A program made the position numbers and the translations under genes. From IMG/VR virus record IMGVR_UViG_3300021431_004524, positions 160,001-224,000 of that record: a DNA stretch of 64,000 nt; one strand, written 5' to 3'. Positions 7,103-22,904 of the stretch are shown here, in pieces. The first letter of the stretch is position 1. The number at the start of each line of letters is the position of its first letter. The stretch comes from a virus. Lineage: Duplodnaviria; Caudoviricetes. The notes under the pieces are model-generated. The model had not been told where the DNA came from, did no database searches, and was given only the letters and a program-made list of their open reading frames with translations.

Positions 7103-7134
7103 AAAAGGTGGACTCTTAATTGAATCCACCTTTT
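7103..7134. terminator. Bidirectional intrinsic terminator
   Basis: AAAAGGTGGA...TCCACCTTTT between convergent genes. Confidence 0.8.
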
Positions 7135-7336
7135 AAATTTCCTTATAAACGATATCGTTTATTGTCGGTTTGTAAATCACATTTCCGTCATCATCTATTA
7201 GAGTATATTTTCTGACATCATCCTCATTTATCAAATACACTACATAATCATATATTTGATATCCGTCTAGAAAAGACCATCGACCTTTATCTGATACAAG
7301 TTTGAGTAGTTTCATTTTTTCTTTTATCCAATCCAT
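7133..7336 (-). CDS. Hypothetical protein
   Basis: 67-aa ORF overlapping the lysin stop. Confidence 0.5.
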   Translation of the reverse strand: MDWIKEKMKLLKLVSDKGRWSFLDGYQIYDYVVYLINEDDVRKYTLIDDDGNVIYKPTINDIVYKEI

Positions 7337-7836
7337 TTGAAATCATTCAAGCGATTTAACCAACCTTGAAGGAATACTTTGCTAGCCGGACGGTTTTTAA
7401 CAATGTCTTCAAAATGTTTCTTACGTCTATTCCATAGTTTTTGGAATAATTCTTTCTGATTTGGATAATTATTAAGTGCAGTAAGTGTTTTAGTACCTAC
7501 TTTACCGTCAGCAGTTACTCCTAACACCGCTTGTGGGTATTTGATACCATACACACCACTTGTCCATAACCAGTCGACCACAATGTTGGCAATTGATTGG
7601 CATTCGATTTTATCTGCTTGCCATCTATCCCAAAAATGAACTTTGAAAATATAGTTCCATTGTTCTTCAGTCATATTTTTGAGGTCATTAACGGTTTTTG
7701 ACTTACCATAGATTGAGCGGAATGTTGATAATGTAACACCCCATTTAGTAGCACCTCCGGGGTCAGCAGGGTGATTTGCGAAGGTGTTTCCCTCCCATTT
7801 TCTTACAATTGGTTTCAGTTTCTTGTAGTCTGACAT
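7324..7836 (-). CDS. GH108 lysozyme (endolysin) with C-terminal peptidoglycan-binding domain
   Basis: WEG...HPADPGGATKWGVT; DG.VG.KT; F..GWLNR. Confidence 0.9.
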   Translation of the reverse strand: MSDYKKLKPIVRKWEGNTFANHPADPGGATKWGVTLSTFRSIYGKSKTVNDLKNMTEEQWNYIFKVHFWDRWQADKIECQSIANIVVDWLWTSGVYGIKYPQAVLGVTADGKVGTKTLTALNNYPNQKELFQKLWNRRKKHFEDIVKNRPASKVFLQGWLNRLNDFKWIG

Positions 7837-7905: not shown

Positions 7906-7937
7906 TTTGGTCATTTCAGATAATAATAGTACCTTTG
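7906..7937 (+). promoter_or_regulatory. sigmaA-type promoter
   Basis: TTTG 7906-7909, 20 nt, TACCTTTG 7930-7937. Confidence 0.8.
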
Positions 7938-7964: not shown

Positions 7965-8207
7965 ATGAAATTAATTAATTTAATTGGCGGATTTTTACAT
8001 CAACATTTTGAGGATTTTACCAAGCCTCTTGTTCTAACTCTTGCGTTTTTTGGAATTCTATTTGCAGTTGTCGGACATTATGGTACTATTGGTTTTAATC
8101 TGAAATGGTTTTTATTTTTTGAATTACCTTTATATCTGTTCTGTATATGGGCTTTATATGTGACATATAAATTATATAAGAAAGCGAAGAAATTTAACAA
8201 AAATTAA
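7965..8207 (+). CDS. Small membrane protein (2 TM, basic C-tail)
   Basis: Two hydrophobic segments and a KKAKK tail. Confidence 0.6.
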   Translation: MKLINLIGGFLHQHFEDFTKPLVLTLAFFGILFAVVGHYGTIGFNLKWFLFFELPLYLFCIWALYVTYKLYKKAKKFNKN

Positions 8208-8216
8208 CAGAAAATA

Positions 8217-8248
8217 TTTGGTACTTTTAAAAATTCATAGTATCTTTG
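8217..8248 (+). promoter_or_regulatory. sigmaA-type promoter
   Basis: TTTG 8217-8220, 20 nt, TATCTTTG 8241-8248. Confidence 0.8.
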
Positions 8249-8278
8249 CACACAAATTAAGTAAAAAATATAAAAACT

Positions 8279-8977
8279 ATGGCAAAAGGAAATTTTTTGA
8301 AGGCAATTGCAAGTGCATTTGTTGAAGTACAAGACGAAGAGGGACAAGTAAATGAAGGCCAGAGTACGCCTCCGACTTCAATTGTTTCACCTGTTATGGC
8401 AACGCCTGTTCAATCTGCACCGACAGTCGGACAACCCGTCGTAAATTCAGACGGTACAATTCAGGGACAACTTGATAATAAACTGTTTGAACAACTTTGT
8501 GAGGTTGTAGAGGAAAGCAATATTCCCGGACCTGACTATGTTGAACTTACCAAGGCTGCACAGAATGATGCGATTAAGGCTGTTATTCCTGATGAGAACG
8601 CCCGTTTCATGACAGCATACATCAGTATCAAGGCTACTGCCCCACAGTTAACTAAAAAGGTCGTACTTGACAGTATTGACAGTTATGTTAAGATTCTTGA
8701 GAATGAGCGAAAGAACGGTTTGGAGGAACTCCATACAAAGTGGGTTGAGAACGTTGAGAATCCGGAGAATGAGGTTACGGCTGCACAGGAGGAAATCGTA
8801 ACACTGCAAAAGAAACTCCAAGACAAGATTCAATTTGTTGCTGAACAGAAGACGAAGATTGCGAACGCTAAGAATGAGCATAACATCAAGAAGGCTAATT
8901 TCAACTTCACGTTTGATGTATTTGTCAAGAAACTTTTGGATGATAAGGCACGACTTGATTCAATTCTTCAAGATTAA
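8279..8977 (+). CDS. Coiled-coil protein associated with the PspA-like/ABC module
   Basis: Amphipathic N-terminus, P/T-rich linker, C-terminal heptads. Confidence 0.65.
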   Translation: MAKGNFLKAIASAFVEVQDEEGQVNEGQSTPPTSIVSPVMATPVQSAPTVGQPVVNSDGTIQGQLDNKLFEQLCEVVEESNIPGPDYVELTKAAQNDAIKAVIPDENARFMTAYISIKATAPQLTKKVVLDSIDSYVKILENERKNGLEELHTKWVENVENPENEVTAAQEEIVTLQKKLQDKIQFVAEQKTKIANAKNEHNIKKANFNFTFDVFVKKLLDDKARLDSILQD

Positions 8978-9004
8978 TTAACTAATAAAAAAGAATAGAA
9001 AGAT

Positions 9005-10075
9005 ATGAATGATTTAATGGTGACAAACAATTCACAGACTAAAATTTCACCTTGGGAGAAGCCGGGTGGTACACTTGGCTTGGTAGTAGCTGGCGGTGCT
9101 GTGGCCGGTGGTGCTATACTGTTGTATAAGATTCTGCCGTTTCTTATCACACTGACAACCAATATCCTTACACTTGGTATGCTTGTGGCTGTATTGTCCG
9201 GTATTGCATTCCTTATTTCGGATAAGAGGTTTAGGAAAACAGTATCAATGGTGTATTTCCTTATTATGCGTAAGATTACAGGTCTTATCATCGAAATTGA
9301 CCCAATTGCCATTGTAGAGGCTAAGGTTAAGGAAATGAAGGAGAAAATCTTGGTAATCGAGAAACAGATGGGTAATATCAAGGGTCTTATTACGCAGAAT
9401 CAACGTAGAGTCGATGATAAAAAGGCTGAATTGGAGAAGCAACTTGGTATGCTTAAGCAGTATGAGCAGCGCAATATGCTTGACCGTGCAAAAGTTACAC
9501 AGCGTCAGGTAGTACGTCTGCAAGGTGCTGTTGAGAGACAGTCAAAGCGTCTTGAGGACTCGAAGAAATGGATGGAAATCCTTAAAAAGTTGAAAGAGCG
9601 TGCTGATTTGGTTGTCGTTGACACTGAAAATGAGGTTAATGACCGTAAGGAGGAATATGAGTCAATCAAGGCACAACATAAGGCCTTCTCTTCAATTATG
9701 TCTATCATTAAGGGTAATCCTGATGATTTGGAGGACTTCACTCATGCAATGGACTACATGGCTTACGATATTTCCATGCGACTTGGCGAAATGTCTAATG
9801 TCATTGACGAGACCGGTGGCTTGCTCTCACAGATTAGTGTTGAGGACGGTGTAACATCGGAAAAGGCTGCACAGTTGCTTCAGAAGTATGAGAATGAGGG
9901 TATTGAGGGTTTGTTCAGTACAAATAATACGGAAACATATAAGACAAAGGCTGTCGAGAATCAAAAGGCCGTGTTTGACCTTAATTCACTTAATAGTGCA
10001 AGGTATGAGGAACAAGTACCAATTGAGGTTAATACATCTGAGAAAGCCCCTGCCAAGAGAAGTTATTTCAATTGA
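9005..10075 (+). CDS. Membrane-anchored PspA/IM30-like coiled-coil protein
   Basis: N-terminal TM segments, then DP..I.E..V.EM.. and a long coiled coil. Confidence 0.6.
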   Translation: MNDLMVTNNSQTKISPWEKPGGTLGLVVAGGAVAGGAILLYKILPFLITLTTNILTLGMLVAVLSGIAFLISDKRFRKTVSMVYFLIMRKITGLIIEIDPIAIVEAKVKEMKEKILVIEKQMGNIKGLITQNQRRVDDKKAELEKQLGMLKQYEQRNMLDRAKVTQRQVVRLQGAVERQSKRLEDSKKWMEILKKLKERADLVVVDTENEVNDRKEEYESIKAQHKAFSSIMSIIKGNPDDLEDFTHAMDYMAYDISMRLGEMSNVIDETGGLLSQISVEDGVTSEKAAQLLQKYENEGIEGLFSTNNTETYKTKAVENQKAVFDLNSLNSARYEEQVPIEVNTSEKAPAKRSYFN

Positions 10076-10094
10076 TATAAAATAGGTTAATAAT

Positions 10095-10574
10095 ATGGCT
10101 ACAAGAGGAACAATTGTAATTAAGATTAAGGATGAAGACCTTGGTAAAAAGGTAAAGGTTAATCCTACTTATCTTACTAAGGATGAAGAGAGAATTAATA
10201 AGTATGAAACCAAGTGTTTCGAAGTAGAGTTAAGCAAGAAGTATGCTGAAATCTACCAACATTGGGATAGTTACCCAGAGGGACTTGGCACTTCACTTGT
10301 GAAGTATTGGGACACTTACGATAAGGTGTTAAATCTCATTCTTGGTGGCGATGCAAGTAGTGTAGATTCTGATGTAACAGGTTATGTTGCAATGGAAGAC
10401 CGTGATGAACAATATAAAGACTTGCAACCTAACTTTACCGATGAGTGCCCGCGTGTTAGTGAAGAATGGCAATATCTCTTCGATGAAGATGGTAAATGGT
10501 ATGTCCGTGATGGTTATAGGGTTAAGAAATGGATGTTGGTAAGCGAGTATCTCACAAAACATTCTGATGATTAA
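10095..10574 (+). CDS. Conserved phage hypothetical protein
   Basis: MATRG.I...IYQHWDSYPEGLG motif. Confidence 0.7.
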   Translation: MATRGTIVIKIKDEDLGKKVKVNPTYLTKDEERINKYETKCFEVELSKKYAEIYQHWDSYPEGLGTSLVKYWDTYDKVLNLILGGDASSVDSDVTGYVAMEDRDEQYKDLQPNFTDECPRVSEEWQYLFDEDGKWYVRDGYRVKKWMLVSEYLTKHSDD

Positions 10575-10593
10575 CACTTTTTAACGAAAATTA

Positions 10594-10625
10594 TTTGGTA
10601 GTGTGGAAAATTTGTATTACCTTTG
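10594..10625 (+). promoter_or_regulatory. sigmaA-type promoter enclosed by an 11-bp inverted repeat
   Basis: TTTG 10594-10597, 20 nt, TACCTTTG 10618-10625; ATTTGGTAGTG/CACTACCAAAT. Confidence 0.75.
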
Positions 10626-10698
10626 CACTACCAAATTTGGAAAGAGAGAATTAAAAACAAAAGTTTAACAAAAAAAAAGTAAATTAATAAAAAGAATT

Positions 10699-12270
10699 AT
10701 GGCAAAAGTTATTGTAAAAAGCTGGGTTCGCTACACAGGGATTATTCTCGCAGTCGCAGCAATTGTGTTTGGTCTTTGGTGGATGGGACAGTCATCTGAT
10801 GGAAGTAAGGACACTAAGGGTGTATTCACCAGTGTATTCGGTGGTGGTGACAAGAATGTAATCACCGTTGGAACTAACACCTATGCGGGTTTCCTTCCAT
10901 TTATGTATCTCAACAACGGTCTTGACCCGAATGAGGAAAGCATCATCTATAAGGATTATGGTATTAAGTTGAAGATTGTAATTCAGGATGATTTCCAAGC
11001 AGGACGTTCAGCATTCCGTAATGGTGATATTGATATCATCTATTGTACGGCAGATGCTCTACCTGTTGAAATGTCAGAGGGTTCGGAAATGGCAGATTCA
11101 CGTTTCTTCAATATTTCCAACTGGTCACGTGGTGCTGATGCTATTGTAGTGAATAAGAACGTTCAGACGGTTGGTAATCTTATCGGTAAGGTCGTTGCTT
11201 GCTCTGAGGGCACTGCAAGTCATACACTTCTTCTGAATACCCTTGAAACCAACGGTATCGGCTATGATAAAGTGAATACGGGTTCGAATATTGACCCGAA
11301 TAAGGTGAATATTAAGGTTGTGGCAAGCGGTCTTGATGCGGCGGCAATTTTCAAGGCAGGACAGTGTGATGCCGCAGTAGTGTTCTCACCTGATGACCAA
11401 GACATTGTAGCAACGGTTAATGGTGCAAAGGTTCTTGTATCGACCAAGCAGGCAAGTAGCATTATTTGTGACGGACTTATTGCGAAGCAGTCTTATCTTG
11501 ATGCAAACCGTGAGAATGTTAAGAAGTTGATTTCAGCACTTCTTATGGCTAATGTGAAGATGAATACCGAGCCAAAGGCTGTTGAGCAGGCAGCAAAGGC
11601 ATTCGCTAAGGGTTATGGTACTGACGAGCAGTTTGCAATTGACGGTTCAAAGAACATCCATTATGTAACACTTGGTGATGAAGCTAATTTCTTCGGTTTG
11701 AACGCATCTTACACAGGCGTACAGGGTTCGGAACTCTATTCTAAGATGGCACGTACATATTCAGGACTTAAACTCTGTAAGTCGCCACTTTCATGGAATA
11801 AGGTATCAGACAGTTCAATTATCGAGGAACTTGTGGCAGACCCGTCCGGTGTAAAGGGTGAGCAGTCAGCAGAAAAGGCTAAGACATTCACAGCACCTAC
11901 AAAGGAGATTGAGACAGCCGCAGCAATGTCAACCAAAAAGGTAACTATCGATTATCCAAGTGGTAGTGATGTTCTTGATAATGATGCTAAAGCAGTAATT
12001 GACCGTGAGTTCGTAGGTATTGCAAAGCAGTTCAATGGTTCACGTATCCGAATTGAGGGTAATACCGATGCAACCGGTTCTGATGCAGTCAATGTACCAC
12101 TTTCTAAGGCACGCGCTCAGTCAGTAGCCAATTATCTCATCAAAGAGTATGGATTTGACAAGAACCGCTTCATCATTGTCGGTAATGGTTCAAAGAAGGC
12201 TATTGCTGATGGTGTTACGGGGGCAAATCAGAATTACCGTACAACTGATTTCGAGTTGATTAACGAGTGA
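10699..12270 (+). CDS. ABC substrate-binding protein (SsuA/NMT1-like) fused to an OmpA-C peptidoglycan-binding domain
   Basis: N-terminal TM anchor; WSRGADAIV, L.GK.VA, G..DAAV motifs; C-terminal IEGNTD..N..LS..RA.SV..YL...R motifs. Confidence 0.85.
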   Translation: MAKVIVKSWVRYTGIILAVAAIVFGLWWMGQSSDGSKDTKGVFTSVFGGGDKNVITVGTNTYAGFLPFMYLNNGLDPNEESIIYKDYGIKLKIVIQDDFQAGRSAFRNGDIDIIYCTADALPVEMSEGSEMADSRFFNISNWSRGADAIVVNKNVQTVGNLIGKVVACSEGTASHTLLLNTLETNGIGYDKVNTGSNIDPNKVNIKVVASGLDAAAIFKAGQCDAAVVFSPDDQDIVATVNGAKVLVSTKQASSIICDGLIAKQSYLDANRENVKKLISALLMANVKMNTEPKAVEQAAKAFAKGYGTDEQFAIDGSKNIHYVTLGDEANFFGLNASYTGVQGSELYSKMARTYSGLKLCKSPLSWNKVSDSSIIEELVADPSGVKGEQSAEKAKTFTAPTKEIETAAAMSTKKVTIDYPSGSDVLDNDAKAVIDREFVGIAKQFNGSRIRIEGNTDATGSDAVNVPLSKARAQSVANYLIKEYGFDKNRFIIVGNGSKKAIADGVTGANQNYRTTDFELINE

Positions 12271-12303
12271 TTTCAATTTCTTTCAAAATATAATATAAGT
12301 TCG

Positions 12304-12341
12304 ATGGAGTGGTTGACTAAAAAGTTGGTCACTCCATTTTT
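12304..12341 (+). terminator. Intra-operon hairpin or partial terminator
   Basis: ATGGAGTG...CACTCCAT plus T-run between SBP and permease. Confidence 0.65.
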
Positions 12342-12361
12342 AAACTAAAAAAATTCTTTCA

Positions 12362-13183
12362 ATGTTTAAAAAGTTATTCAAATTTGGTGGAGAAAGCGAC
12401 TTTGGTACTGTACAGAATATCATAATAAGTGTCGTTGGATTCATCATTATCATTTTAGGTTGGCATTTCATATCAGTAAATGAAATTATACCGACTAACA
12501 TTCTTCCTGACCCATTTAAGGTGGCCGGAAGTTATGGGACACTGATAAGTGAGTATCATATGTTCGGTAATGCATGGTTCAGCCTTAAAATGAATTTACT
12601 TTGTTATGTATATGCTATCGGTTTGTCATTGCCAATAGGTTTTATTATCACTTTATGCCCATTACTTAATTTGTTAATCAGTAAATACATAACGAGTATT
12701 AGATTTCTTCCATTTGTGGCAATAAGTTCGATATTCGTTTCAATTTTCGGCCTTACATTTAACATGAAGGTATGGTTTTTGACCGCTGCATTGATGGTGT
12801 ATATCATTCCTGCAATTGTCAATAAGATTAATGATTTGCAGAATCCTAAGAATGATAAGGATAATGTATATCTTCAGACAATTCAGACAATGGGTGCGTC
12901 CAATTGGGAAAAGTTCAGATATGTATATTGGCCGTATGTAACGAGTGGTGTTGCTGATACATGCCGTGATTTGCTTGCTGTCAGTTGGACATATGTAACT
13001 GTAGCAGAGTTGATTTATAAGGATGGAGAGATTACAGGTCTTGGTGCATCAATTAATACCATGATTAGGCAGTCGCACATACCAGAGGCATATGCTCTTA
13101 TTGTACTGATTATTGCAATTGGCTTTGCGCAGGATTTTGTTTTTGCTAAATTAATTAAGAAGTTGTTTCCATATAAAAATTAA
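12362..13183 (+). CDS. ABC permease (SsuC/TauC-like)
   Basis: About 6 TM segments; LP.P..V; EAA-like YLQTIQTMGAS; W.....AEL. Confidence 0.85.
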   Translation: MFKKLFKFGGESDFGTVQNIIISVVGFIIIILGWHFISVNEIIPTNILPDPFKVAGSYGTLISEYHMFGNAWFSLKMNLLCYVYAIGLSLPIGFIITLCPLLNLLISKYITSIRFLPFVAISSIFVSIFGLTFNMKVWFLTAALMVYIIPAIVNKINDLQNPKNDKDNVYLQTIQTMGASNWEKFRYVYWPYVTSGVADTCRDLLAVSWTYVTVAELIYKDGEITGLGASINTMIRQSHIPEAYALIVLIIAIGFAQDFVFAKLIKKLFPYKN

Positions 13184-13188
13184 TTGAA

Positions 13189-14193
13189 ATGGGTAATTTA
13201 TTTTCAAATATATTGAAGGAAGATGTTGCTGGAAAGACAGTAAACGAAACTACGGATAAAGGTCCTGGTGAAACCGTTGCATGTTCACCATCTGAGATTG
13301 TTTCTGTGTTAAAAGACCATGTTGCACCTGATATTACGACCAAGGAGGTGGAAATGGTTAGAGAGCAATGTAAGGAAAGTGCAATTGTTCCTACTAAGAA
13401 ACATGACGGTGAATATGAAGCGGAAAACACTCCTAATGTTATTGACTTTGAAAATGTAACAGTAAAATTTGGTGATTTTACATTGTTTGATAAATTGAAT
13501 TTCTCAATACCCGATTTTAAGGGTGAAGGGCAGTTTATCGCAATTATGGGTAGTAGTGGAAGCGGTAAAAGCCAAATGGCACGTCTGATTTCTGGACTTA
13601 AAAGGCCAAATGAGGGCGTTGTTAAGATGTATGGTAAGCCTTATGATGAGAAAACACATGTTCCGATGGTATTCCAACAGTATTCTTCATTTCCTTGGAT
13701 GACAGTTCTTGAAAATGTCGCTTTGCCATTGAAAATGAAAGGAGTTGGCAAAGAGGAACGTGAAGCAAAGGCTATGGAAATCCTTAAACTTGTCGGACTT
13801 GAAGGACATGAGCAGAAATGGGCGCAATATCCGGCATTATCTGGCGGACAGTTGCAGCGAGTCTCTTTGGCTCGTAATCTTGCAGGTGATTCTCAGATTA
13901 TGATACTTGATGAATACAGTTCCGGTCTTGATACAGCATCAAAGGCATCAATGCAGGACATCTTGCTTAAATTGTTCTATGATGATAGTGTTGACCGTAC
14001 ATTTATCATGATTACGCATGATATTAATGAGGCAATATATCTGTCACAGAGAGTTTATCTGCTTGATGCTAAGACACACACATTCGGTGATGTCGTGGAT
14101 GTTAAGTTTGATGGAAAACGTGATAGGAATATCATTAATACACCAAAGTATCAGGAATACTACAATAGAATTGAAAGATTCTTTAACAAGTAA
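13189..14193 (+). CDS. ABC ATPase (SsuB/TauB-like)
   Basis: Walker A GSSGSGKS, Q-loop VFQQY, LSGGQ, ILDE, ITHD. Confidence 0.92.
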   Translation: MGNLFSNILKEDVAGKTVNETTDKGPGETVACSPSEIVSVLKDHVAPDITTKEVEMVREQCKESAIVPTKKHDGEYEAENTPNVIDFENVTVKFGDFTLFDKLNFSIPDFKGEGQFIAIMGSSGSGKSQMARLISGLKRPNEGVVKMYGKPYDEKTHVPMVFQQYSSFPWMTVLENVALPLKMKGVGKEEREAKAMEILKLVGLEGHEQKWAQYPALSGGQLQRVSLARNLAGDSQIMILDEYSSGLDTASKASMQDILLKLFYDDSVDRTFIMITHDINEAIYLSQRVYLLDAKTHTFGDVVDVKFDGKRDRNIINTPKYQEYYNRIERFFNK

Positions 14194-14224: not shown

Positions 14225-14264
14225 AAAATGGCCAAGGTGAAATATCCTTGACCATTTTTTTTTT
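14225..14264 (+). terminator. Intrinsic terminator
   Basis: AAAATGGCCAAGG...CCTTGACCATTTT plus long T-run. Confidence 0.8.
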
Positions 14265-14479: not shown

Positions 14480-15622
14480 ATGGCAAATAAACACATACAA
14501 CACGTAAAGAGTAACGTTGTCAATACAGATGCCCAGGGTAATAAATCACCTAAGCTTCCTGAAGTTGGAAATATTCTTGAAGGTGAGCTTGCTGTGAACT
14601 ATGCTGATGGTTATGAACGTATTTCTTTGAAGAATACAAATAATGAGATTGTTCAGTTTGTACCAAAGGATTATGTCGATGCTGCTGATAACACAAAGGC
14701 CGCTAGTAACCACGTTCATGGTAATATTGGAAATGGTGGTGCATTGACTGACACTGCTGCTGCTTCTGCTACTGATGACTGTATCGTCATTAGGGACGCA
14801 AGTAACAATAAGATTCAGACCTCTACAACTAAGGGTACTGATGTTGCTGATGCTATTAATAAAAAGCATACACATAACAACATTACTTTGAGTACTACGG
14901 CTCAGGCTTATGACGATAAGGAACATACGATTCAACTCCCTGCAAGTGACCCATATGTCAGTGCCCGTACCCCAGTTTCACATACACATGGTAATATATC
15001 CAATTCAGGTACGTTAAATGATACGGCTGCTGATGCTGCCGGTAATGACTATGTTGTTATTAGAGATGCTGACAACGGCAAGATTCAGACTTCTACAATC
15101 AAAGGTGTTGATGTGGCTGATGCCATTTCTAAGAAACACAGCCATAGTAATAAAGCGGAATTAGATAAGATTAATAGTGGTGATGTCGCTAAATGGAATG
15201 GTGCTGTAACAGGTAGTGTAACCTCCGTTTCATATGATACCACTAATAAAAAGATAACTAAAACAATTAACAATACGACATCTGATGTCGTGACGGCTTC
15301 AACTATTGTTACTGATGGTGGTGGTATCAAAGCACATGCTACACATAAATTAAACGCAACCAATGGAACTGCTTCAGCCGTAAGCCAAGGAACTGAGATT
15401 ACTTATGTTGAATCTTTGAGTGGTACTACAACAGCTACTTCCGGCGATTTGTCAGTGTCTTCAACAAGAAAGAAGATTACAGTACCTGCAATTCCGGCTT
15501 CACTTCCTGCAAATGGAGGTAATGCTGATACTGTTGATAATTTCCATTTTGTGAAGATATCACAGCAAGATTATGATAATTTAACAACAAAAGATTCTAA
15601 TACATTTTATATTATAAATTAA
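14480..15622 (+). CDS. Tail-fibre-like protein
   Basis: N-terminal P...L..GELAVNY anchor; duplicated HxH repeat; ANGGNADTVD; C-terminal Y..L..KD.NTFYII. Confidence 0.7.
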   Translation: MANKHIQHVKSNVVNTDAQGNKSPKLPEVGNILEGELAVNYADGYERISLKNTNNEIVQFVPKDYVDAADNTKAASNHVHGNIGNGGALTDTAAASATDDCIVIRDASNNKIQTSTTKGTDVADAINKKHTHNNITLSTTAQAYDDKEHTIQLPASDPYVSARTPVSHTHGNISNSGTLNDTAADAAGNDYVVIRDADNGKIQTSTIKGVDVADAISKKHSHSNKAELDKINSGDVAKWNGAVTGSVTSVSYDTTNKKITKTINNTTSDVVTASTIVTDGGGIKAHATHKLNATNGTASAVSQGTEITYVESLSGTTTATSGDLSVSSTRKKITVPAIPASLPANGGNADTVDNFHFVKISQQDYDNLTTKDSNTFYIIN

Positions 15623-15626
15623 AATT

Positions 15627-18600
15627 ATGGCTAGAAACAGTGAAATATTTTTAGGCGGTGATAATAGCACGCTTATATACTTAGGAGAAGAAGAGCATAA
15701 GATTTATCTTGGCTCTGACCTTGTTTATCAACCTAAGATTAGTATCGCAAGTGCAACTGTTTCCGTCGGTTCAAAAACATATAATGGAAGTAAACAGACT
15801 GCTTCATCAATCACTGTCACCATTTCTGGCAAAACACTTACAGTAGGTGAAGATTATCAGATAACATCTAATAGTGGTGGAACCAATGTTGGTAATTATA
15901 CTGTTACAGTAACAGGTATTGGGCTTTATAAGGATGCCGCTTCTGGAACATTCACGATTAATAAGGTAACTCCTACTGTAACAGCCCCAACAGCAAAAGT
16001 TCTGACTTATAACGGTTCAGCACAGGTTCTTGCAACCGCCGGAAGTACTAATTTTGGTACTTTAAAATACAGTCTTGATAATAGTACTTGGCAGACAGCG
16101 GTTCCTGCCGCCACAAACCAAGGCAGTTATACCTTATACTATAAGGTGGATGGTGACAGTAACATCAATAGCGTGGCTGCTAAGAGTATTACTTGTTCGA
16201 TTAATGCAAAACAAGTGACAGCGACTGTCGAACTTAGTCAGACAAAATACACATATAATGGTTCTGCTTTTAAGCCCACTGTTACGGTAAAGGATGGTAG
16301 TACGGTTATTCCGGCTTCTGAATACACGGTTACTTATAGTAATAATGTAAATGCAGGTACGGCAACAGTAACAATTAATGATAATACAGGCGGTAACTAT
16401 GAGGTTATAGGTTCAGCCGACTTTACAATTAATAAAGCTGCTGGAAGTATCAGTTATGAAACTACAACCGTAAATAAAACCTATGGCAATAGTGCCTTTA
16501 CTAATGCATTGACAAAAACCGGTGATGGTAGCGTAACATATTCTTCAAGTAATACAAATGTCGCAACAGTAAATTCTTCCGGTCAAGTGACAATTAAGGC
16601 TGCCGGTTCAGTAACTATTACGGCTACTGTTACTGACGGTACTAATTACGCATACGCAACAAAAACTGCAAGTTATACACTAAGTGTAGCTAAAGCGACA
16701 CCTACGGTTACTGCACCTACGGCTAAAAACCTTACATATAATGGTGGTGCTCAGACGCTTATTAATGCCGGTTCTACTACTGGTGGAACTATTCAATATA
16801 AACTCGGTACAGGTAGTTATAGTACTTCTTTACCTTCTGCAACGAATAAGGGAAGTTATACAGTATACTATAAAGTTGTTGGTAATTCAAATTACAATGA
16901 TGTGGCTGAAGCAAGCGTTACGGTTGAAATTAAGGCTAAGGCACTTACTATTACAGCGAAAGACCAAACAGTTTCTTATGGTACTGCAATCACACAAGGT
17001 ACCGGACAAGTTACGGTTAGTGGTTTGGTAAGTGGTGATACTTTAACTGCAATTACGCTTACTCAGAGTACTGTTAATGTAACGACAACCGGTACAATCA
17101 CACCATCTGCTGCCGCAACGACTAATGGTATCGGTAACTATAGTGTTACCTATACAAATGGTAAATTGACAATTACAGCCGTTGAACCAATTAAGACAGA
17201 CCCTGTTAAGATAGGTAATCTTACATATAATGGCAGTGCTCAGAACCTTGTTACGGCAGGCACAAGTAGTCATGGTACTTTTAGTTATAAATTGTCTACT
17301 GCAAGTACATATGGAAGCAGTATTCCGACCGGTACGAATGCAGGAACATATAGTGTTGATTGGAAATTCGTTGCTGATGCCAATCACGGCGGCGGAACAG
17401 TTACAGGTACTATAACAAATATTTCAATTGCACAGAAATCGCTTACTATTGCTGCTAAAAAGCAAAGCGTTGTATATGGTACTGCAATCACACAGGGTAC
17501 AAACCAAGTTACCGTTACTGGTTTAGTATCAGGCGATTCATTAACTGCAATTACGCTTACACAAAGCACGGTTAATGTGACAACAACCGGTACAATCACG
17601 CCATCTGCTGCCGCAACGACAAAGGGTATCAGTAACTATAGTGTTACTTATGACACTGCAAATCTGACAATTACACAGAAAGCACTTACGATTACAGCAA
17701 AGGCACAGACAGTAAATTATGGTACTGCAATTACACAAGGTACAGGCCAAGTTACTGTTACAGGTTTGGTAACCGGTGATTCATTAACTGCAATTACGCT
17801 TACACAAAGCACGGTTAATGTGACAACAACCGGTACAATCACGCCATCTGCTGCCGCAACCACAAACGGCATTAGTAACTACTCAGTAACATATAATACT
17901 GGTGTACTTACAATTAATAAGGTTTCGGCAAGTGTTACAAAAAAGCCTACTGCTAAGTCACTGACTTATAATACAGAGGCACAAGCCCTTGTAAATGCTG
18001 GTACTGCTAACGGTGGTACAATGTATTATCAGATGACCACATCTAATAGCAAACCAACTAACACAAGCGGATTCAGTGCAACAATACCAACCGGTACGAA
18101 TGCAGGAACATATTATGTATGGTATTACGTAAAAGGTGATTCTAACCATACTGATACTGCAATAAGTGAAACTGCTGTTACTGTGACGATTAATAGTAAG
18201 GCTATTGTTATTCCTACTCCTACGGGTGTAGAGAAAACATATGATGGCACTGCTGCAAGTGCAACATTCAGTGCGGCAACAGGTGCAACAATTACTAAGT
18301 ACAGATATTCAACTGATAATAGTTCATGGACTGAATCAAGTTCTAACCCAATTCAGACGAATCATGGTACTTTATACACACAAGCTTATTATACGGCTTC
18401 GGCAAACTATACTGGTAGCGGATGGTCTTCAAGTGCTACTATCTCGATTGCCAAGGCAGCTCCAACATATACCGCCCCAACTGCTAAGACAGGACTTGTT
18501 TATAGCGGTTCAGCGCAAGCATTGCTTAATGCTGGCTCGACAAGTCATGGTACGATTCAATATTCATCTGATAATACCAATTGGGGTACAACTATACCAA

Positions 18601-21600
18601 CCGGAACAAATGTCAACACATACACAAGTTATTGGCGTTTAGTTGGTGATAATAACCATACTGATGTGTCATCTAAGAGTCTGAGCACATCAATCGGTAA
18701 GGTAACTCCTACTGTAACGGCCCCAACTGCCAAGTCACTTACTTACACGGGTTCTGCTCAGACATTGGCAAATGCCGCATCTACTAACTTCGGTACATTG
18801 CAATACTCCTTGGATGATACCAATTGGAGTACAACTATACCAACAGGAACGAATGCCGCATCTTATACAGTATACTATCGTGTAGTCGGTAATAGTAACA
18901 TCAATGACGTTGCTTCTGATAGTATTACGTGTAGTATTGGCAAGGCTGCCGGAAGTATCAGTTATGCGACTACAACCGTAGATAAAACCTATGGCAATAG
19001 TGCCTTTACTAATGCATTGACCAAGACCGGTGATGGTTCAGTTACCTATTCTTCAAGCAATACAAGTATTGCAACTGTGAATACTTCCGGTCAAGTTACA
19101 ATTAAGGCCGCAGGTTCAGCAACTATTACGGCTACAGTTACTGACGGTTCTAACTACACATACGCGACAAAGACTGCAAGCTACACATTGAATGTGGCCA
19201 AGGCTAATCTAAGTGCGTCGGTATCTATGGACGGATGGACTTATGGCGGCACTGCTAGTAGCCCATCAGTAAGTGGTAATAGTGGCGGTGGCTCAGTAAC
19301 CTATTCTTATAAGGTTAGTGGGGCTGCTGACTCTACTTATACAACTACAAAGCCAAGCAATGCGGGTAATTATGTGGTACGTGCTGTTATTGCTGAAACC
19401 GCAAACTATAATGGCGCAACAGTTACCAATACATTCACTATTGCAAAGGCTAATCCGGCATATACAGCACCAACCGCTAAGACATTAACATATAACGGTT
19501 CGGCACAAGCATTGCTTAACGCCGGTTCTACAAGTCATGGTACGATTCAGTACTCTTCAGACAACAGTACTTGGGGTACGTCTATTCCAACTGGTACAAA
19601 TGCCACATCTTACACAAGTTATTGGAGACTTGTAGGTGATAGCAACCATAAAGATGTGTCATCTAAGAGTCTGAGCACATCAATCGGTAAGGTAACTCCT
19701 ACTGTAACGGCCCCAACCGCCAAGGTTCTGACTTATAACGGTTCTGCTCAGACATTGGCAAATGCCGCATCTACTAACTTCGGTACATTGAAGTATAGCC
19801 TTGATAATAGTACTTGGCAGACAGCGGTTCCTTCCGCTACAAACCAAGGCAGTTATACCTTATACTATAAGGTGGACGGTGACAGTAATATCAATAGCGT
19901 GGCTGCTAAGAGTATTGCATGTTCTATCAACGAGAAAGAAGTAACGGCAACAGTTACATTAAGTCAGTCGACATATACATATAGTGGTAGTGCTTGCACG
20001 CCAACAGTTACTGTGAAAGACGGTAGTACGGTTATTCCGGCTTCTGAATACACGGTTACTTATAGTAACAATGTAAATGCGGGTACGGCAACAGTAACAA
20101 TTACCGATAATACAGGCGGTAACTACAATGTCACAGGTTCGGCAACGTTTACTATTAACAAGGCCAATGGTAGTGTGACTATCAATGCAACTGCACCTAC
20201 TTATACAGGTAATGCTCAGAGTCTTGTTACTGTAAGTGGTAATACGGGTACAGTACATTATAGAGTTGGCACAAGTGGAAGTTGGACAACTACAATTCCT
20301 ACTGGAACCGGTGCCGGCAATTATACCGTATATTGGTACATGGATGCATCATCAAATTATAAGGCACTTAACAGTTCTTCAAGTCCGGCCAGTGTTGCTG
20401 TAACAATCGCCAAGGCTAATCCATCATATGAAGCCCCAACTGCTAAGACAGGACTTGTTTATAGCGGTTCGGCACAAGCATTACTTAATGCGGGCTCGAC
20501 AAGTCATGGTACGATTCAGTACTCTTCAGACAACAGTACTTGGGGTACGTCTATTCCAACGGGCACAAATGCCACATCTTACACAAGTTATTGGAGACTT
20601 GTAGGTGATGGCAACCATAAAGATGTGTCATCTAAGAGTCTGAGCACATCAATCGGTAAGGCATCCGGCATTGCGGGTGTTTCAAGTAGAAGTCTTTCAT
20701 ACACTCGCGGTGCTCAGAACCTCGTAACCGTAAGTGGTAATACGGGTACAGTACATTATAGAGTTGGCACAAGTGGAAGTTGGACAACTACAATCCCAAC
20801 TGCTACTAATGCAGCAACATATACTATATACTATTATGTAGATGCTTCTACGAACTACAATGGTGTAGGTTCAAGTAGTAGTCCTAATAATGTAAGCACT
20901 ACAATCGCTAAGGTTACTCCGGTACTTTCTACAAGTCCTTCGTTGAGAACCGGTTTGAACTATACAGGTTCTGCACAAAATCTTCTTAGTGGTGGTGCAA
21001 TGAAACATAGTAGTTCCGATACCACTTCAGTCGCAGGTACATTCACTTATACTCAGAAAACCAATGCCGGAACATATACTGACCCTACTTGGTCGTTTAC
21101 ACCAACAGATACAACTAACTATAATTCAACAAGTGGTAAGATAACAGGCAGTGTGACAATCGCTAAGATTAACCCAACATATAATGCTCCAACCGCCAAG
21201 TCTGGACTTGTATATAACGGCGTATCTCAGACATTGTATAATGCAGGTTCTAACACAACAGCGGGTGAGTTCTCTTATACTAGCGGTACAAGAAAGGATG
21301 CCGGCAGTCAGACTGTAAGTTGGACATTCACGCCTACCGATACCACTAACTATAATACAAAAACCGGTTCATTTGGCGTAACAATCGGACAGAAAGAAGT
21401 AACACTAAGTTGGGGTACACTTTCTTGGACTTATGACAAGAAGGAACACTCAACAACATGTACTGCCGGTAGTCTAATATCGGGTGATACGTGTTATGTA
21501 ACTCTCACAGGTAATTCAATTACCAATGTCGGAACAGCCACTGTTACAGCATCTGAATTGGGTAATAGTAACTATAAGCTACCATCAGCAAATACTAACA

Positions 21601-22904
21601 CACTTACAGTAAGTGCAAGAACGGTTACTCTTACTTGGGGTACGACTTCTTGGACTTATGACAAGACGGCACACTCTACTACGTGTACATTGGGTAATGT
21701 TGTAAGCGGTGATACGTGTACAGTTACTTTAACAGGTAACTCTATCACTGATGTCGGTTCAACAACTGTCACAGCAAGTAGCCTAAGCAATAGCAACTAT
21801 GCATTGCCATCAAGTAAGACCGCAACACTTACAGTGACAGCAAGAACGGTTACACTTACATGGGGTGATGTCACGTGGGTATATGACGGTGCAGCACACA
21901 GCACAACATGTAAAGCAGGAAACCTCGCAAGTGGTGATACATGCACTGTGACACTTAGTGGTAATAGTATAACCAACAAAGGTACGACAACTGTCACAGC
22001 AAGTAGCCTAAGCAATAGCAACTATGCATTGCCATCAAGTAAGACCGCAACACTTACAGTGACAGCAAGACAAATCAATGTTACGGCAGGTTCTACCTCT
22101 AAGACCTATGACGGTACTGCTTTGACATACAATAGTGCAACAGCAGAGTCTACCGGTACTAACAGAGGTCTTGTAAGTGGCCATTCTATGACTTCTTGCA
22201 CAGTCACAGGCACAATTACCACCAAGGGTTCTGCCGATAATACACCAAGTTCTGCTGTTATTAAGAGTGGTAGTACAGACGTTACATCAAACTATAGTAT
22301 TACTTACGTTAAGGGTTCGCTTACCGTTAATGCAAGGGCTGTCACATCTACGGCTACTGATGAGTCATGGACTTATGACGGAAATGCACATAGTGCTTCT
22401 AACACGGGTACTACGACTAACTTGCCAACCGGCCATACAGCAACATACACTTGCTCAGGTAGTATAACCAATGCAGGTACAGCCACTAAGACATTGAGTA
22501 GTGTCGTTATCAAGAACAGTGGTGGAACTGATGTATCGTCAAGTTTCACAATAACAAAGAATAACGGTACGTTAACAGTTACTAAGGCAAATATTACTCC
22601 ATCAGTCTCTATGAATGGATGGGTATGGGGTGAAACAGCACAGAGTCCTTCTGTAAGTGGCAATAGTGGCAGTGGCGTAGTAACCTATACATACAAGTAT
22701 CCTGGTACAAGTACTTATACTTCAACTGCTCCGGTTTCTAAATCAGATATCGGTACATATACAGTTAAAGCCTCTATTGCTGAATCAACAAACTACAACG
22801 CAGGCGAAGCAACCAATACATTCTCGATTATTACGAACTTCAAACCAAGTGGTTCTGATGCTTTAATAACATCTAACGGCCAATACTTCGAAGTTAGTAC
22901 TTAA
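15627..22904 (+). CDS. Giant T/S/G-rich Ig-like repeat adhesin or fibre protein (Big_2/MBG-like modules)
   Basis: 2425 aa of roughly 75-90-aa beta-rich modules; YSSSNT.VATV...G.VT (Big_2) twice; near-identical internal DNA repeats. Confidence 0.75.
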   Translation: MARNSEIFLGGDNSTLIYLGEEEHKIYLGSDLVYQPKISIASATVSVGSKTYNGSKQTASSITVTISGKTLTVGEDYQITSNSGGTNVGNYTVTVTGIGLYKDAASGTFTINKVTPTVTAPTAKVLTYNGSAQVLATAGSTNFGTLKYSLDNSTWQTAVPAATNQGSYTLYYKVDGDSNINSVAAKSITCSINAKQVTATVELSQTKYTYNGSAFKPTVTVKDGSTVIPASEYTVTYSNNVNAGTATVTINDNTGGNYEVIGSADFTINKAAGSISYETTTVNKTYGNSAFTNALTKTGDGSVTYSSSNTNVATVNSSGQVTIKAAGSVTITATVTDGTNYAYATKTASYTLSVAKATPTVTAPTAKNLTYNGGAQTLINAGSTTGGTIQYKLGTGSYSTSLPSATNKGSYTVYYKVVGNSNYNDVAEASVTVEIKAKALTITAKDQTVSYGTAITQGTGQVTVSGLVSGDTLTAITLTQSTVNVTTTGTITPSAAATTNGIGNYSVTYTNGKLTITAVEPIKTDPVKIGNLTYNGSAQNLVTAGTSSHGTFSYKLSTASTYGSSIPTGTNAGTYSVDWKFVADANHGGGTVTGTITNISIAQKSLTIAAKKQSVVYGTAITQGTNQVTVTGLVSGDSLTAITLTQSTVNVTTTGTITPSAAATTKGISNYSVTYDTANLTITQKALTITAKAQTVNYGTAITQGTGQVTVTGLVTGDSLTAITLTQSTVNVTTTGTITPSAAATTNGISNYSVTYNTGVLTINKVSASVTKKPTAKSLTYNTEAQALVNAGTANGGTMYYQMTTSNSKPTNTSGFSATIPTGTNAGTYYVWYYVKGDSNHTDTAISETAVTVTINSKAIVIPTPTGVEKTYDGTAASATFSAATGATITKYRYSTDNSSWTESSSNPIQTNHGTLYTQAYYTASANYTGSGWSSSATISIAKAAPTYTAPTAKTGLVYSGSAQALLNAGSTSHGTIQYSSDNTNWGTTIPTGTNVNTYTSYWRLVGDNNHTDVSSKSLSTSIGKVTPTVTAPTAKSLTYTGSAQTLANAASTNFGTLQYSLDDTNWSTTIPTGTNAASYTVYYRVVGNSNINDVASDSITCSIGKAAGSISYATTTVDKTYGNSAFTNALTKTGDGSVTYSSSNTSIATVNTSGQVTIKAAGSATITATVTDGSNYTYATKTASYTLNVAKANLSASVSMDGWTYGGTASSPSVSGNSGGGSVTYSYKVSGAADSTYTTTKPSNAGNYVVRAVIAETANYNGATVTNTFTIAKANPAYTAPTAKTLTYNGSAQALLNAGSTSHGTIQYSSDNSTWGTSIPTGTNATSYTSYWRLVGDSNHKDVSSKSLSTSIGKVTPTVTAPTAKVLTYNGSAQTLANAASTNFGTLKYSLDNSTWQTAVPSATNQGSYTLYYKVDGDSNINSVAAKSIACSINEKEVTATVTLSQSTYTYSGSACTPTVTVKDGSTVIPASEYTVTYSNNVNAGTATVTITDNTGGNYNVTGSATFTINKANGSVTINATAPTYTGNAQSLVTVSGNTGTVHYRVGTSGSWTTTIPTGTGAGNYTVYWYMDASSNYKALNSSSSPASVAVTIAKANPSYEAPTAKTGLVYSGSAQALLNAGSTSHGTIQYSSDNSTWGTSIPTGTNATSYTSYWRLVGDGNHKDVSSKSLSTSIGKASGIAGVSSRSLSYTRGAQNLVTVSGNTGTVHYRVGTSGSWTTTIPTATNAATYTIYYYVDASTNYNGVGSSSSPNNVSTTIAKVTPVLSTSPSLRTGLNYTGSAQNLLSGGAMKHSSSDTTSVAGTFTYTQKTNAGTYTDPTWSFTPTDTTNYNSTSGKITGSVTIAKINPTYNAPTAKSGLVYNGVSQTLYNAGSNTTAGEFSYTSGTRKDAGSQTVSWTFTPTDTTNYNTKTGSFGVTIGQKEVTLSWGTLSWTYDKKEHSTTCTAGSLISGDTCYVTLTGNSITNVGTATVTASELGNSNYKLPSANTNTLTVSARTVTLTWGTTSWTYDKTAHSTTCTLGNVVSGDTCTVTLTGNSITDVGSTTVTASSLSNSNYALPSSKTATLTVTARTVTLTWGDVTWVYDGAAHSTTCKAGNLASGDTCTVTLSGNSITNKGTTTVTASSLSNSNYALPSSKTATLTVTARQINVTAGSTSKTYDGTALTYNSATAESTGTNRGLVSGHSMTSCTVTGTITTKGSADNTPSSAVIKSGSTDVTSNYSITYVKGSLTVNARAVTSTATDESWTYDGNAHSASNTGTTTNLPTGHTATYTCSGSITNAGTATKTLSSVVIKNSGGTDVSSSFTITKNNGTLTVTKANITPSVSMNGWVWGETAQSPSVSGNSGSGVVTYTYKYPGTSTYTSTAPVSKSDIGTYTVKASIAESTNYNAGEATNTFSIITNFKPSGSDALITSNGQYFEVST
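21762..22070 (+). repeat. Identical 84-bp direct repeat (21762-21845 = 21987-22070) inside the giant gene
   Basis: acaactgtcacagcaagtagcc...gtgacagcaaga occurs twice. Confidence 0.85.

Follow-up and report, generated by a model that had tools for sequence, protein, structure and literature searches.

A megaphage copy of a Bacteroidota operon type that joins a divergent PspA-like protein to a predicted wall-tethered ABC importer

In a 64,000-nucleotide (nt) stretch of viral DNA (positions 160,001 to 224,000 of the IMG/VR record IMGVR_UViG_3300021431_004524, hereafter the window), seven open reading frames (ORFs) form one co-oriented block on the + strand (7965-14193) whose central genes encode a divergent, membrane-anchored PspA-like protein and a complete ATP-binding cassette (ABC) importer with an unusual binding protein. 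PspA/ESCRT-III proteins are universal membrane-repair and -remodelling polymers. The record to which the window belongs (235,653 bp, with an estimated completeness of 60%) comes from a giant rumen/gut phage that is kin to the Lak megaphages. Judging from sequence comparisons, the module is not a phage invention and represents the megaphage copy of a bacterial operon type. We lean, with modest confidence, towards the view that it is a copy of a Bacteroidota inner-membrane/envelope module made of two coupled halves, which would maintain the host envelope during a long infection. In the first half, the PspA-like protein (encoded at 9005) would face the cytoplasm, a hairpin of two helices tying it to the inner membrane, and would be accompanied by an obligate coiled-coil partner (8279). 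The second would be a type I importer whose binding protein (10699) would have two attachments, an N-terminal anchor in the inner membrane and an OmpA-like domain on the peptidoglycan.

The protein at the heart of the first half, P0002 (9005..10075, + strand, 356 residues), had been described in the initial annotation as PspA-like and anchored by transmembrane (TM) helices, and both parts of this description were borne out, by profile-profile homology and by two predicted TM helices, respectively. P0002 has no significant Pfam or PHROG family, and a sequence search of the PDB with P0002 alone found no match. A profile search of 1.84 billion representatives placed it in a family of proteins of ~340 residues with 1132 clusters (50% identity) at E<=1e-3 and 325 at E<=1e-30. 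Among the 46 diverse members that make up the family profile (A3), PF04012 was the commonest Pfam match, being found in 10 with a best E of 8.3e-5, and other coiled-coil families matched at most three members each. PF04012 was also the top match of the chromosomal homologues (E 1.6e-4 and 6e-4; 20-22 bits). Comparison of A3 by hhalign with a profile of canonical PspA proteins (24, all from Bacteroidota genomes) aligned residues 102-275 of the query with residues 25-192 of PspA over 165 columns (Prob 94.2%, P 1.2e-7), far beyond the reversed-sequence controls (P 0.03-0.04), and it is this margin that argues for homology to PspA. The alignment starts at a conserved 'DP' motif (residues 99-100 of P0002), whose proline is the sole invariant residue of the family and which also opens helix alpha1 of PspA. 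A PspA hidden Markov model built here directly matches one viral family member (L111) at E<=1e-5, and A3 searched against PDB sequences reached Vipp1 only at E 0.7-2.7.

Structure prediction was of lower resolving power. The AlphaFold2 model of P0002 (24-sequence alignment, pLDDT 61) consists of TM-region helices (22-51 and 54-72, the two predicted TM helices corresponding to a hairpin at residues 22-72), a short alpha0-like helix, a helical hairpin (100-155/159-231) and further helices. The initial annotation had proposed a Foldseek comparison of both first-half proteins with PspA/Vipp1, and the outcome was split: for 9005, Vipp1 and PspA did come first, yet with E values of 5e-3 and weaker, so that fold searches alone are not discriminating, and for 8279 there was no PDB match at all. 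VIA-align on P0002 produced nothing but ties among helical proteins. From the profile evidence we place P0002, as a divergent member, in the PspA/ESCRT-III superfamily; its amphipathic alpha0 appears to be replaced by a predicted two-helix membrane anchor.

The gene directly upstream encodes P0001 (8279..8977, + strand, 232 residues), called a coiled-coil protein in the initial annotation, a view that the long helix in its model supports. P0001 has no significant Pfam or PHROG family. Its model (pLDDT 80) shows a disordered N-terminal region of 50 residues, in which a short conserved hydrophobic motif is followed by a variable disordered linker, after which come a small helical domain, marked by an invariant PGPDY motif, and a single helix of ~100 residues. 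No PDB fold was matched by Foldseek (best E 2.0), and hhalign comparisons of the P0001 family with PspA and with the P0002 family gave a Prob of 1-17%, not exceeding the reversed control, hence no relation to either. Homologues of P0001 lie directly 5' of the PspA-like gene in eight of 13 bacterial loci, a ninth (L080) lies 5' of a weaker PspA-like match, and in viral loci with the Lak-type gene order the homologue is again directly 5' of the PspA-like gene.

The second half begins with P0003 (10699..12270, + strand, 523 residues), which combines an NMT1-type (SsuA/THI5 type) binding-protein domain (residues 83-301, nt 10945-11601) with an OmpA-like peptidoglycan-binding domain (residues 421-512, nt 11959-12234). 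Both assignments exceed the Pfam cut-offs (NMT1_2, 34.4 bits against 24.7; NMT1, 28.8 against 20.5; OmpA PF00691, 59.1 against 27.2), and the full-length protein matches phrog_25518. At the N-terminus, a hydrophobic stretch (~13-29) without a lipobox cysteine comes after basic residues, a pattern that reads as a membrane anchor. The OmpA-like domain contains GNTD and LSKARA (LSxxRA), and at G454, N455, L468, S469, R472 and A473 no variation is seen among 17 fusions from phages and bacteria; it thus carries a canonical, predicted peptidoglycan-binding motif. The permease P0004 (12362..13183, + strand, 273 residues) matches BPD_transp_1 (27.4 bits, cut-off 26.4) and has the GAS..W..F..V..P coupling-helix motif. 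The ATPase P0005 (13189..14193, + strand, 334 residues) matches ABC_tran with 91.2 bits and retains Walker A (GSSGSGKS), the Q-loop region, the signature LSGGQ, Walker B (ILDE) and the H-loop (ITHD). Together the three genes are predicted to encode an intact type I ABC importer of the NitT/TauT class, and the initial annotation, which had listed a binding protein with a membrane anchor and an OmpA domain, a permease and an intact ATPase, was right on all three parts. The first 80 residues of the ATPase (nt 13189-13430) constitute a variable N-terminal extension, probably disordered, which bacterial homologues (264-270 residues) do not have; in a related rumen strain there is an in-frame 12-nt insertion in this extension.

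The completeness of this importer raises the question of whether it is simply an auxiliary transporter feeding phage replication with a NitT/TauT nutrient (sulfonate, taurine, nitrate, bicarbonate, a thiamine/pyrimidine precursor or a urea-like compound), the OmpA domain serving only for positioning and the PspA-like pair being an independent neighbour. All catalytic motifs are intact, the binding-protein gene has a promoter motif of its own at 10594, and the nearest NCBIfam models are of the NitT/TauT class for each of the three parts (SsuA_fam, the urea 'uca' binding protein, SaoX and TauA for the binding protein; SaoP, TauC and SsuC for the permease; ntrCD, SaoA and TauB for the ATPase). 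However, all the named models score far below their equivalog cut-offs (SsuA_fam, 65.3 vs 163.5; TauA, 31 vs 304), because of which no substrate is assignable, and a search of a protein atlas for a ligand lead returned generic NMT1 clusters only. The fusion of a binding protein to a peptidoglycan-binding domain is moreover conserved from Bacillus phage G to Bacteroidota, and two types of module, described below, both keep the pair of PspA-like and partner genes next to the importer, which is hard to explain as chance adjacency. On the other side stand the separation of importer and PspA-like pair in several bacterial genomes and the recurrent insertions between the two halves. On balance we regard a plain nutrient importer as unlikely, albeit deserving of consideration.

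The strongest argument for two halves that work together came from viral genomes. A pattern scan of IMG/VR, derived from an alignment of the fusion proteins, found the binding-protein fusion in 79 loci, the contigs measuring 4.6-554 kb. Of these 79, 40 keep the complete five-gene order (partner, PspA-like protein, binding protein, permease and ATPase), and Lak-C1 and the 735-kb phage LR756501 share the gene order of the module. About 30 viral loci display a second architecture, in which permease and ATPase precede a partner-like (weak) protein of 175-190 residues, a soluble protein of 245 residues and the binding-protein fusion. The soluble protein nearly reaches the PF04012 cut-off (E 2.3e-7, 31.1 vs 33.9 bits, covering positions 14-216 of 220). 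That five components stay linked in both arrangements, whether the phage host is Gram-negative or Gram-positive, speaks for halves that act together. The gene-neighbourhood survey suggested in the initial annotation therefore came out in its favour, in viruses as well as on Bacteroidota chromosomes. Its remark that complete ABC systems are uncommon in phages carries little weight for huge phages, considering that at least 79 IMG/VR contigs, as well as 15 loci according to a preprint (10.64898/2026.10.24.761521), bear them.

The fusion also documents the kinship of the source phage: P0003 is 70% identical to its counterpart in 15 Prevotella Lak megaphage genomes, 41% to that of LR756501 and 28% to gp249 of Bacillus phage G, and close relatives of the module proteins are found on contigs of up to 392 kb. 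In a tree of 14 binding-protein fusions, the Lak-type clade is monophyletic and so are four chromosomal sequences, with an unresolved backbone that leaves the direction and number of transfers unsettled. Copies of the Lak-type module with 53-58% identity were seen on contigs from termite-gut metagenome-assembled genomes (MAGs) assigned to Candidatus Azobacteroides sp. and a Prevotellaceae bacterium (L005-L010), two of them in one MAG; a single-protein search of genome contigs yielded just two short contigs from termite-gut MAGs (53-56% identity). These contigs are probably co-binned megaphage fragments and, if so, Lak-like phages extend to termite guts.

The spacing between the starts of the PspA-like and binding-protein genes in viral loci (L081-L128) ranges from 1.06 kb, without an insert, to 3.4 kb. 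In the window this junction (10076-10698) holds P0006 (10095..10574, + strand, 159 residues, phrog_1987), which the initial annotation had correctly set apart as an unrelated inserted gene: it is missing between the same two genes in Lak-C1, LR756501 and most IMG/VR relatives. The junction is a recurrent insertion site and 10095 is one of several independent inserts.

In bacteria, a sample of 301 Bacteroidota genomes contained a full-length chromosomal binding-protein fusion in four (39-42% identity), a distant fusion variant in three more and the PspA-like family in 11. The PspA-like gene lies beside the fusion in six of the seven fusion-bearing genomes, the seventh (G133) having importer and PspA-like pairs on different contigs. 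On one 6.0-Mb chromosome (L024), partner, PspA-like protein, binding-protein-OmpA fusion, permease and ATPase follow one another in a phage-like order, between the genes for NDH-2 and a type IX secretion substrate; in another locus (L025), the two halves are divergent. On the chromosomes the module has housekeeping genes as neighbours, none of them related to phages or defence. This bears on the idea that the module serves superinfection exclusion or defence, a wall-tethered membrane complex altering the envelope so that the DNA of competing phages is blocked from entry. That an envelope accessory module is placed under host-type promoters beside an endolysin gene (7324-7836) would suit such a function, but the same operon among chromosomal housekeeping genes does not, none of the proteins looks like a known exclusion factor (the PADLOC library not having been searched) and nothing found here favours superinfection exclusion specifically. 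We consider this very improbable.

Some bacterial versions of the module include a further gene. A AAA+ protein of 468-633 residues (AAA + AAA_lid_6, C-terminal) adjoins it in L025 (11044-12945) and L080 (13946-15352), homologues of the L025 type being present in two of 15 bacterial loci examined and not found at the Lak-C1, LR756501 and phage G loci. Such additions of a two-domain AAA+ protein next to the ABC genes, as noted by Ravi et al. (PMC11237479), would be in line with a more radical possibility, namely that the five components make up one trans-envelope machine for membrane remodelling. Permease and ABC ATPase would then drive or position (anchor, perhaps energise) a membrane-anchored ESCRT-III-like polymer, standing in for a Vps4-type AAA+ ATPase, and the OmpA-tethered protein would act as stator or wall anchor and not as the receptor of a solute. 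The linkage of five components across two architectures and two host phyla speaks for it, and the combination of TM anchor, periplasmic and OmpA domains recalls, by analogy, wall anchors of the MotB/Pal type. However, permease and ATPase belong to the ordinary type I importers and not to the mechanotransmission type; in the binding domain, 15 residues, which may or may not line the cleft, are invariant over 17 aligned phage and bacterial sequences; and there is no direct evidence of contacts between the halves. A single machine is thus improbable in our estimation, if less readily dismissed than an exclusion function. Were it true, it would amount to an ESCRT-III system, of bacteria or phages, powered by an ABC ATPase instead of Vps4, and megaphages would have captured it in order to reshape or protect the inner membrane (vesicles, compartments, lysis control) in the course of very long infections.

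Expression of the module would depend on the host. The Bacteroidota promoter consensus (TTTG-N17-23-TAnnTTTG) has 17 matches in the window vs 4.7 expected (3.6-fold), a number reached in none of 100 shuffles, and the initial annotation had been sound in speaking of host-type promoters. Three matches lie 28-75 nt 5' of the ORFs at 7965, 8279 and 10699, all on the + strand: TTTG-N20-TACCTTTG at 7906..7937, 28 nt before the 7965 ORF, TTTG-N20-TATCTTTG at 8217..8248, before 8279, and again TTTG-N20-TACCTTTG at 10594..10625, before the binding-protein gene. It follows from these positions that the host polymerase can probably read the block, divided into two or three sub-units. A sigma-70-type scan (42 sites vs 29.5 expected) was uninformative, the Bacteroidota motif being the relevant one. 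Promoter motifs also occur elsewhere in the window (e.g. at 436, 4751, 35102, 39449, 46862 and 63169), nearly all just 5' of correctly oriented ORFs, and several sites share a longer form, TTTG..TTTTTTTGTAGTATxTTTG. The distribution of these motifs suggests that a large share of the region is read by the host RNA polymerase.

Part of the stretch is contained in 14 animal-gut RNA-library runs. In a bovine gut metatranscriptome (X5), one contig of 6,203 nt (depth 43, ~95% identity) spans 7968-14154, and cover on the 4 kb either side of the block is essentially nil. DNA carry-over would not end at the borders of the module, for which reason the contig is taken as evidence for transcription as a discrete unit. 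Its insertions and deletions fall in intergenic spacers or amount to an in-frame 12-nt insertion within the variable N-terminal extension of the ATPase, and the contig includes the first ORF of the block (7965-8207) along with the module. In two other runs (X1 and X2), module and flanks are covered alike at low depth, which makes no distinction between RNA and DNA carry-over. There is therefore fair, although not conclusive, evidence that a close relative transcribes the block as a unit of its own.

These observations can be assembled into a working scenario for the envelope-maintenance module, in which we infer as plausible the formation of a polymer, the protection of the membrane, the coupling of the halves, the binding of a ligand and the benefit to the phage. 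Host RNA polymerase would transcribe the block from the Bacteroidota-type promoters, and the PspA-like protein would polymerise on the cytoplasmic face, stabilising or remodelling the inner membrane. The proton motive force would be kept up, the cell would remain energised and premature lysis or holin triggering would be avoided. The wall-tethered importer, fixed between membrane and wall, would supply or sense a small solute. The functions put forward in the initial annotation, namely the sensing of envelope damage, the preservation of membrane potential and a block to superinfection, are likewise candidate ones.

Several findings weigh against this scenario. The PspA-like protein falls below the PF04012 gathering score (33.9 bits), without a match at E<=0.01, and a PF04012 scan of the 235-kb contig did not recover it at E<=10; having failed this Pfam threshold, it is not filed under PF04012 and is not a strict member of that family. 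Over a stretch of 20 kb, eight of the 13 bacterial loci lack ABC genes alongside the PspA-like gene, the partner being recognised beside it in five of them. Such separate occurrence in bacteria means that the halves are separable and that their coupling could be loose. No homologue of the L025 AAA+ protein was found in the 235-kb contig, which is an estimated 60% of the genome. Finally, contigs from RNA libraries cannot prove a single transcript or its timing, and X5 holds a 95%-identical relative rather than the exact phage.

The module bears on how PspA/ESCRT-III proteins are positioned and regulated beyond the classical systems of Psp and Vipp1. The operon type joins a protein of this kind to an importer that would be pinned to the wall, and its retention by the largest phages of two host phyla, together with its presence in rumen RNA, argues for a selective value. 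Its versions are compact and well conserved and hence suited to biochemistry, and the copy in the window is a clean and uninterrupted example, with promoter motifs and RNA-library support.

The module is embedded among phage genes. Directly upstream and divergent from it, on the - strand, are a gene for a GH108 lysozyme with a PG_binding_3 domain (7324-7836), a likely endolysin, and beside it a small ORF of 67 residues (7133-7336). The first gene of the block (P0453, 7965..8207, + strand) encodes 80 residues with two hydrophobic helices and a basic lysine-rich tail; it has no family match in Pfam or PHROG, and no homologue was found at the Lak-C1, LR756501 or phage G loci. A terminator-like hairpin with a T run (14233..14260, + strand) lies 40 nt past the ATPase stop, with positional support only, such sites being not above chance in the region. 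Downstream follow a protein with a phage tail-tip domain (14480-15622) and an ORF of 2,425 residues with MBG and Big_2 domains (15627-22904), likely a giant tail fibre or adhesin. All ORFs named in the initial annotation are present where it had placed them under translation table 11, and no ORF of the module needs TAG read-through. An alternative code in which TAG is read as Q was rejected, open-frame cover over the contig rising only from 0.83 to 0.84.

Comparison with known systems shows which features are shared and which are peculiar to the phage copy. Like canonical PspA/Vipp1 (IM30), the protein encoded at 9005 has profile homology over ~165 columns from the DP motif, a helical hairpin and further helices in its model and a predicted cytoplasmic, membrane-proximal location. 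It differs from them in having two predicted TM helices and a short helix for the amphipathic alpha0, in being ~100 residues longer and in scoring under the Pfam cut-off. Unlike the canonical Psp system, the module has no PspBC or PspF partners. With the NitT/TauT importers (SsuABC, TauABC, NrtABCD/CmpABCD; TC 3.A.1.16/17), it shares the fold of the binding protein, the permease family, the ATPase subfamily and a complete gene set, whereas the phage binding protein is fused to OmpA and is predicted to be membrane-anchored.

In Bacillus phage G, the permease (gp243) and ABC ATPase (gp245) are accompanied by two paralogous binding-protein-OmpA fusions (gp249 and gp250, 27-28% identity), and phage G proteins of 191 and 246 residues sit where close IMG/VR relatives have the partner-like protein and the soluble PspA. 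The larger of these (gp247) has no Pfam/PF04012 match. The order in phage G is permuted (permease, ATPase, partner, PspA and binding protein), its PspA-like protein is without a TM anchor and its host is Gram-positive.

The association of PspA with huge phages has been reported in a recent preprint (Yuan & Chen 2026; 10.64898/2026.10.24.761521), which describes PspA in 184 huge phage genomes, with 15 loci adjoining a complete ABC transporter (binding protein, ATPase and permease), adds support from metatranscriptomes and puts forward the same role in membrane maintenance. The set is mostly from human gut and the reference PspA proteins are mostly from Bacillota, and its IMG/VR screen (PF04012 at E<=1e-5, 200-300 residues) would miss the TM-anchored protein of 356 residues encoded at 9005. 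The OmpA fusion and the conserved partner are not mentioned in those portions of its main text that are available.

The closest precedent for the whole arrangement is the operon type described by Ravi et al. 2024 (mSystems, PMC11237479), which consists of a TM-bearing PspA/Snf7 homologue, an ABC ATPase, a permease and a PBPb+OmpA protein, and from which a link between membrane remodelling and solute transport was proposed. A two-domain AAA+ ATPase with an inactive N-terminal domain is occasionally associated with such operons, and a third coiled-coil gene occurs in Bacteroidetes neighbourhoods (PMC11237479). The phage copy differs in being carried by a megaphage, without the two-domain AAA+ protein in the contig, and in having the ORF with two TM helices, the inserted gene and the ATPase extension of ~80 residues. 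Both the operon type and its association with phages are already in the recent literature, and the window copy adds a further member. It is by description that the two are likened: here too, a TM-anchored PspA-superfamily protein, ATPase, permease and binding-protein-OmpA fusion are encoded in one co-oriented block, and the third coiled-coil gene fits the 8279 family.

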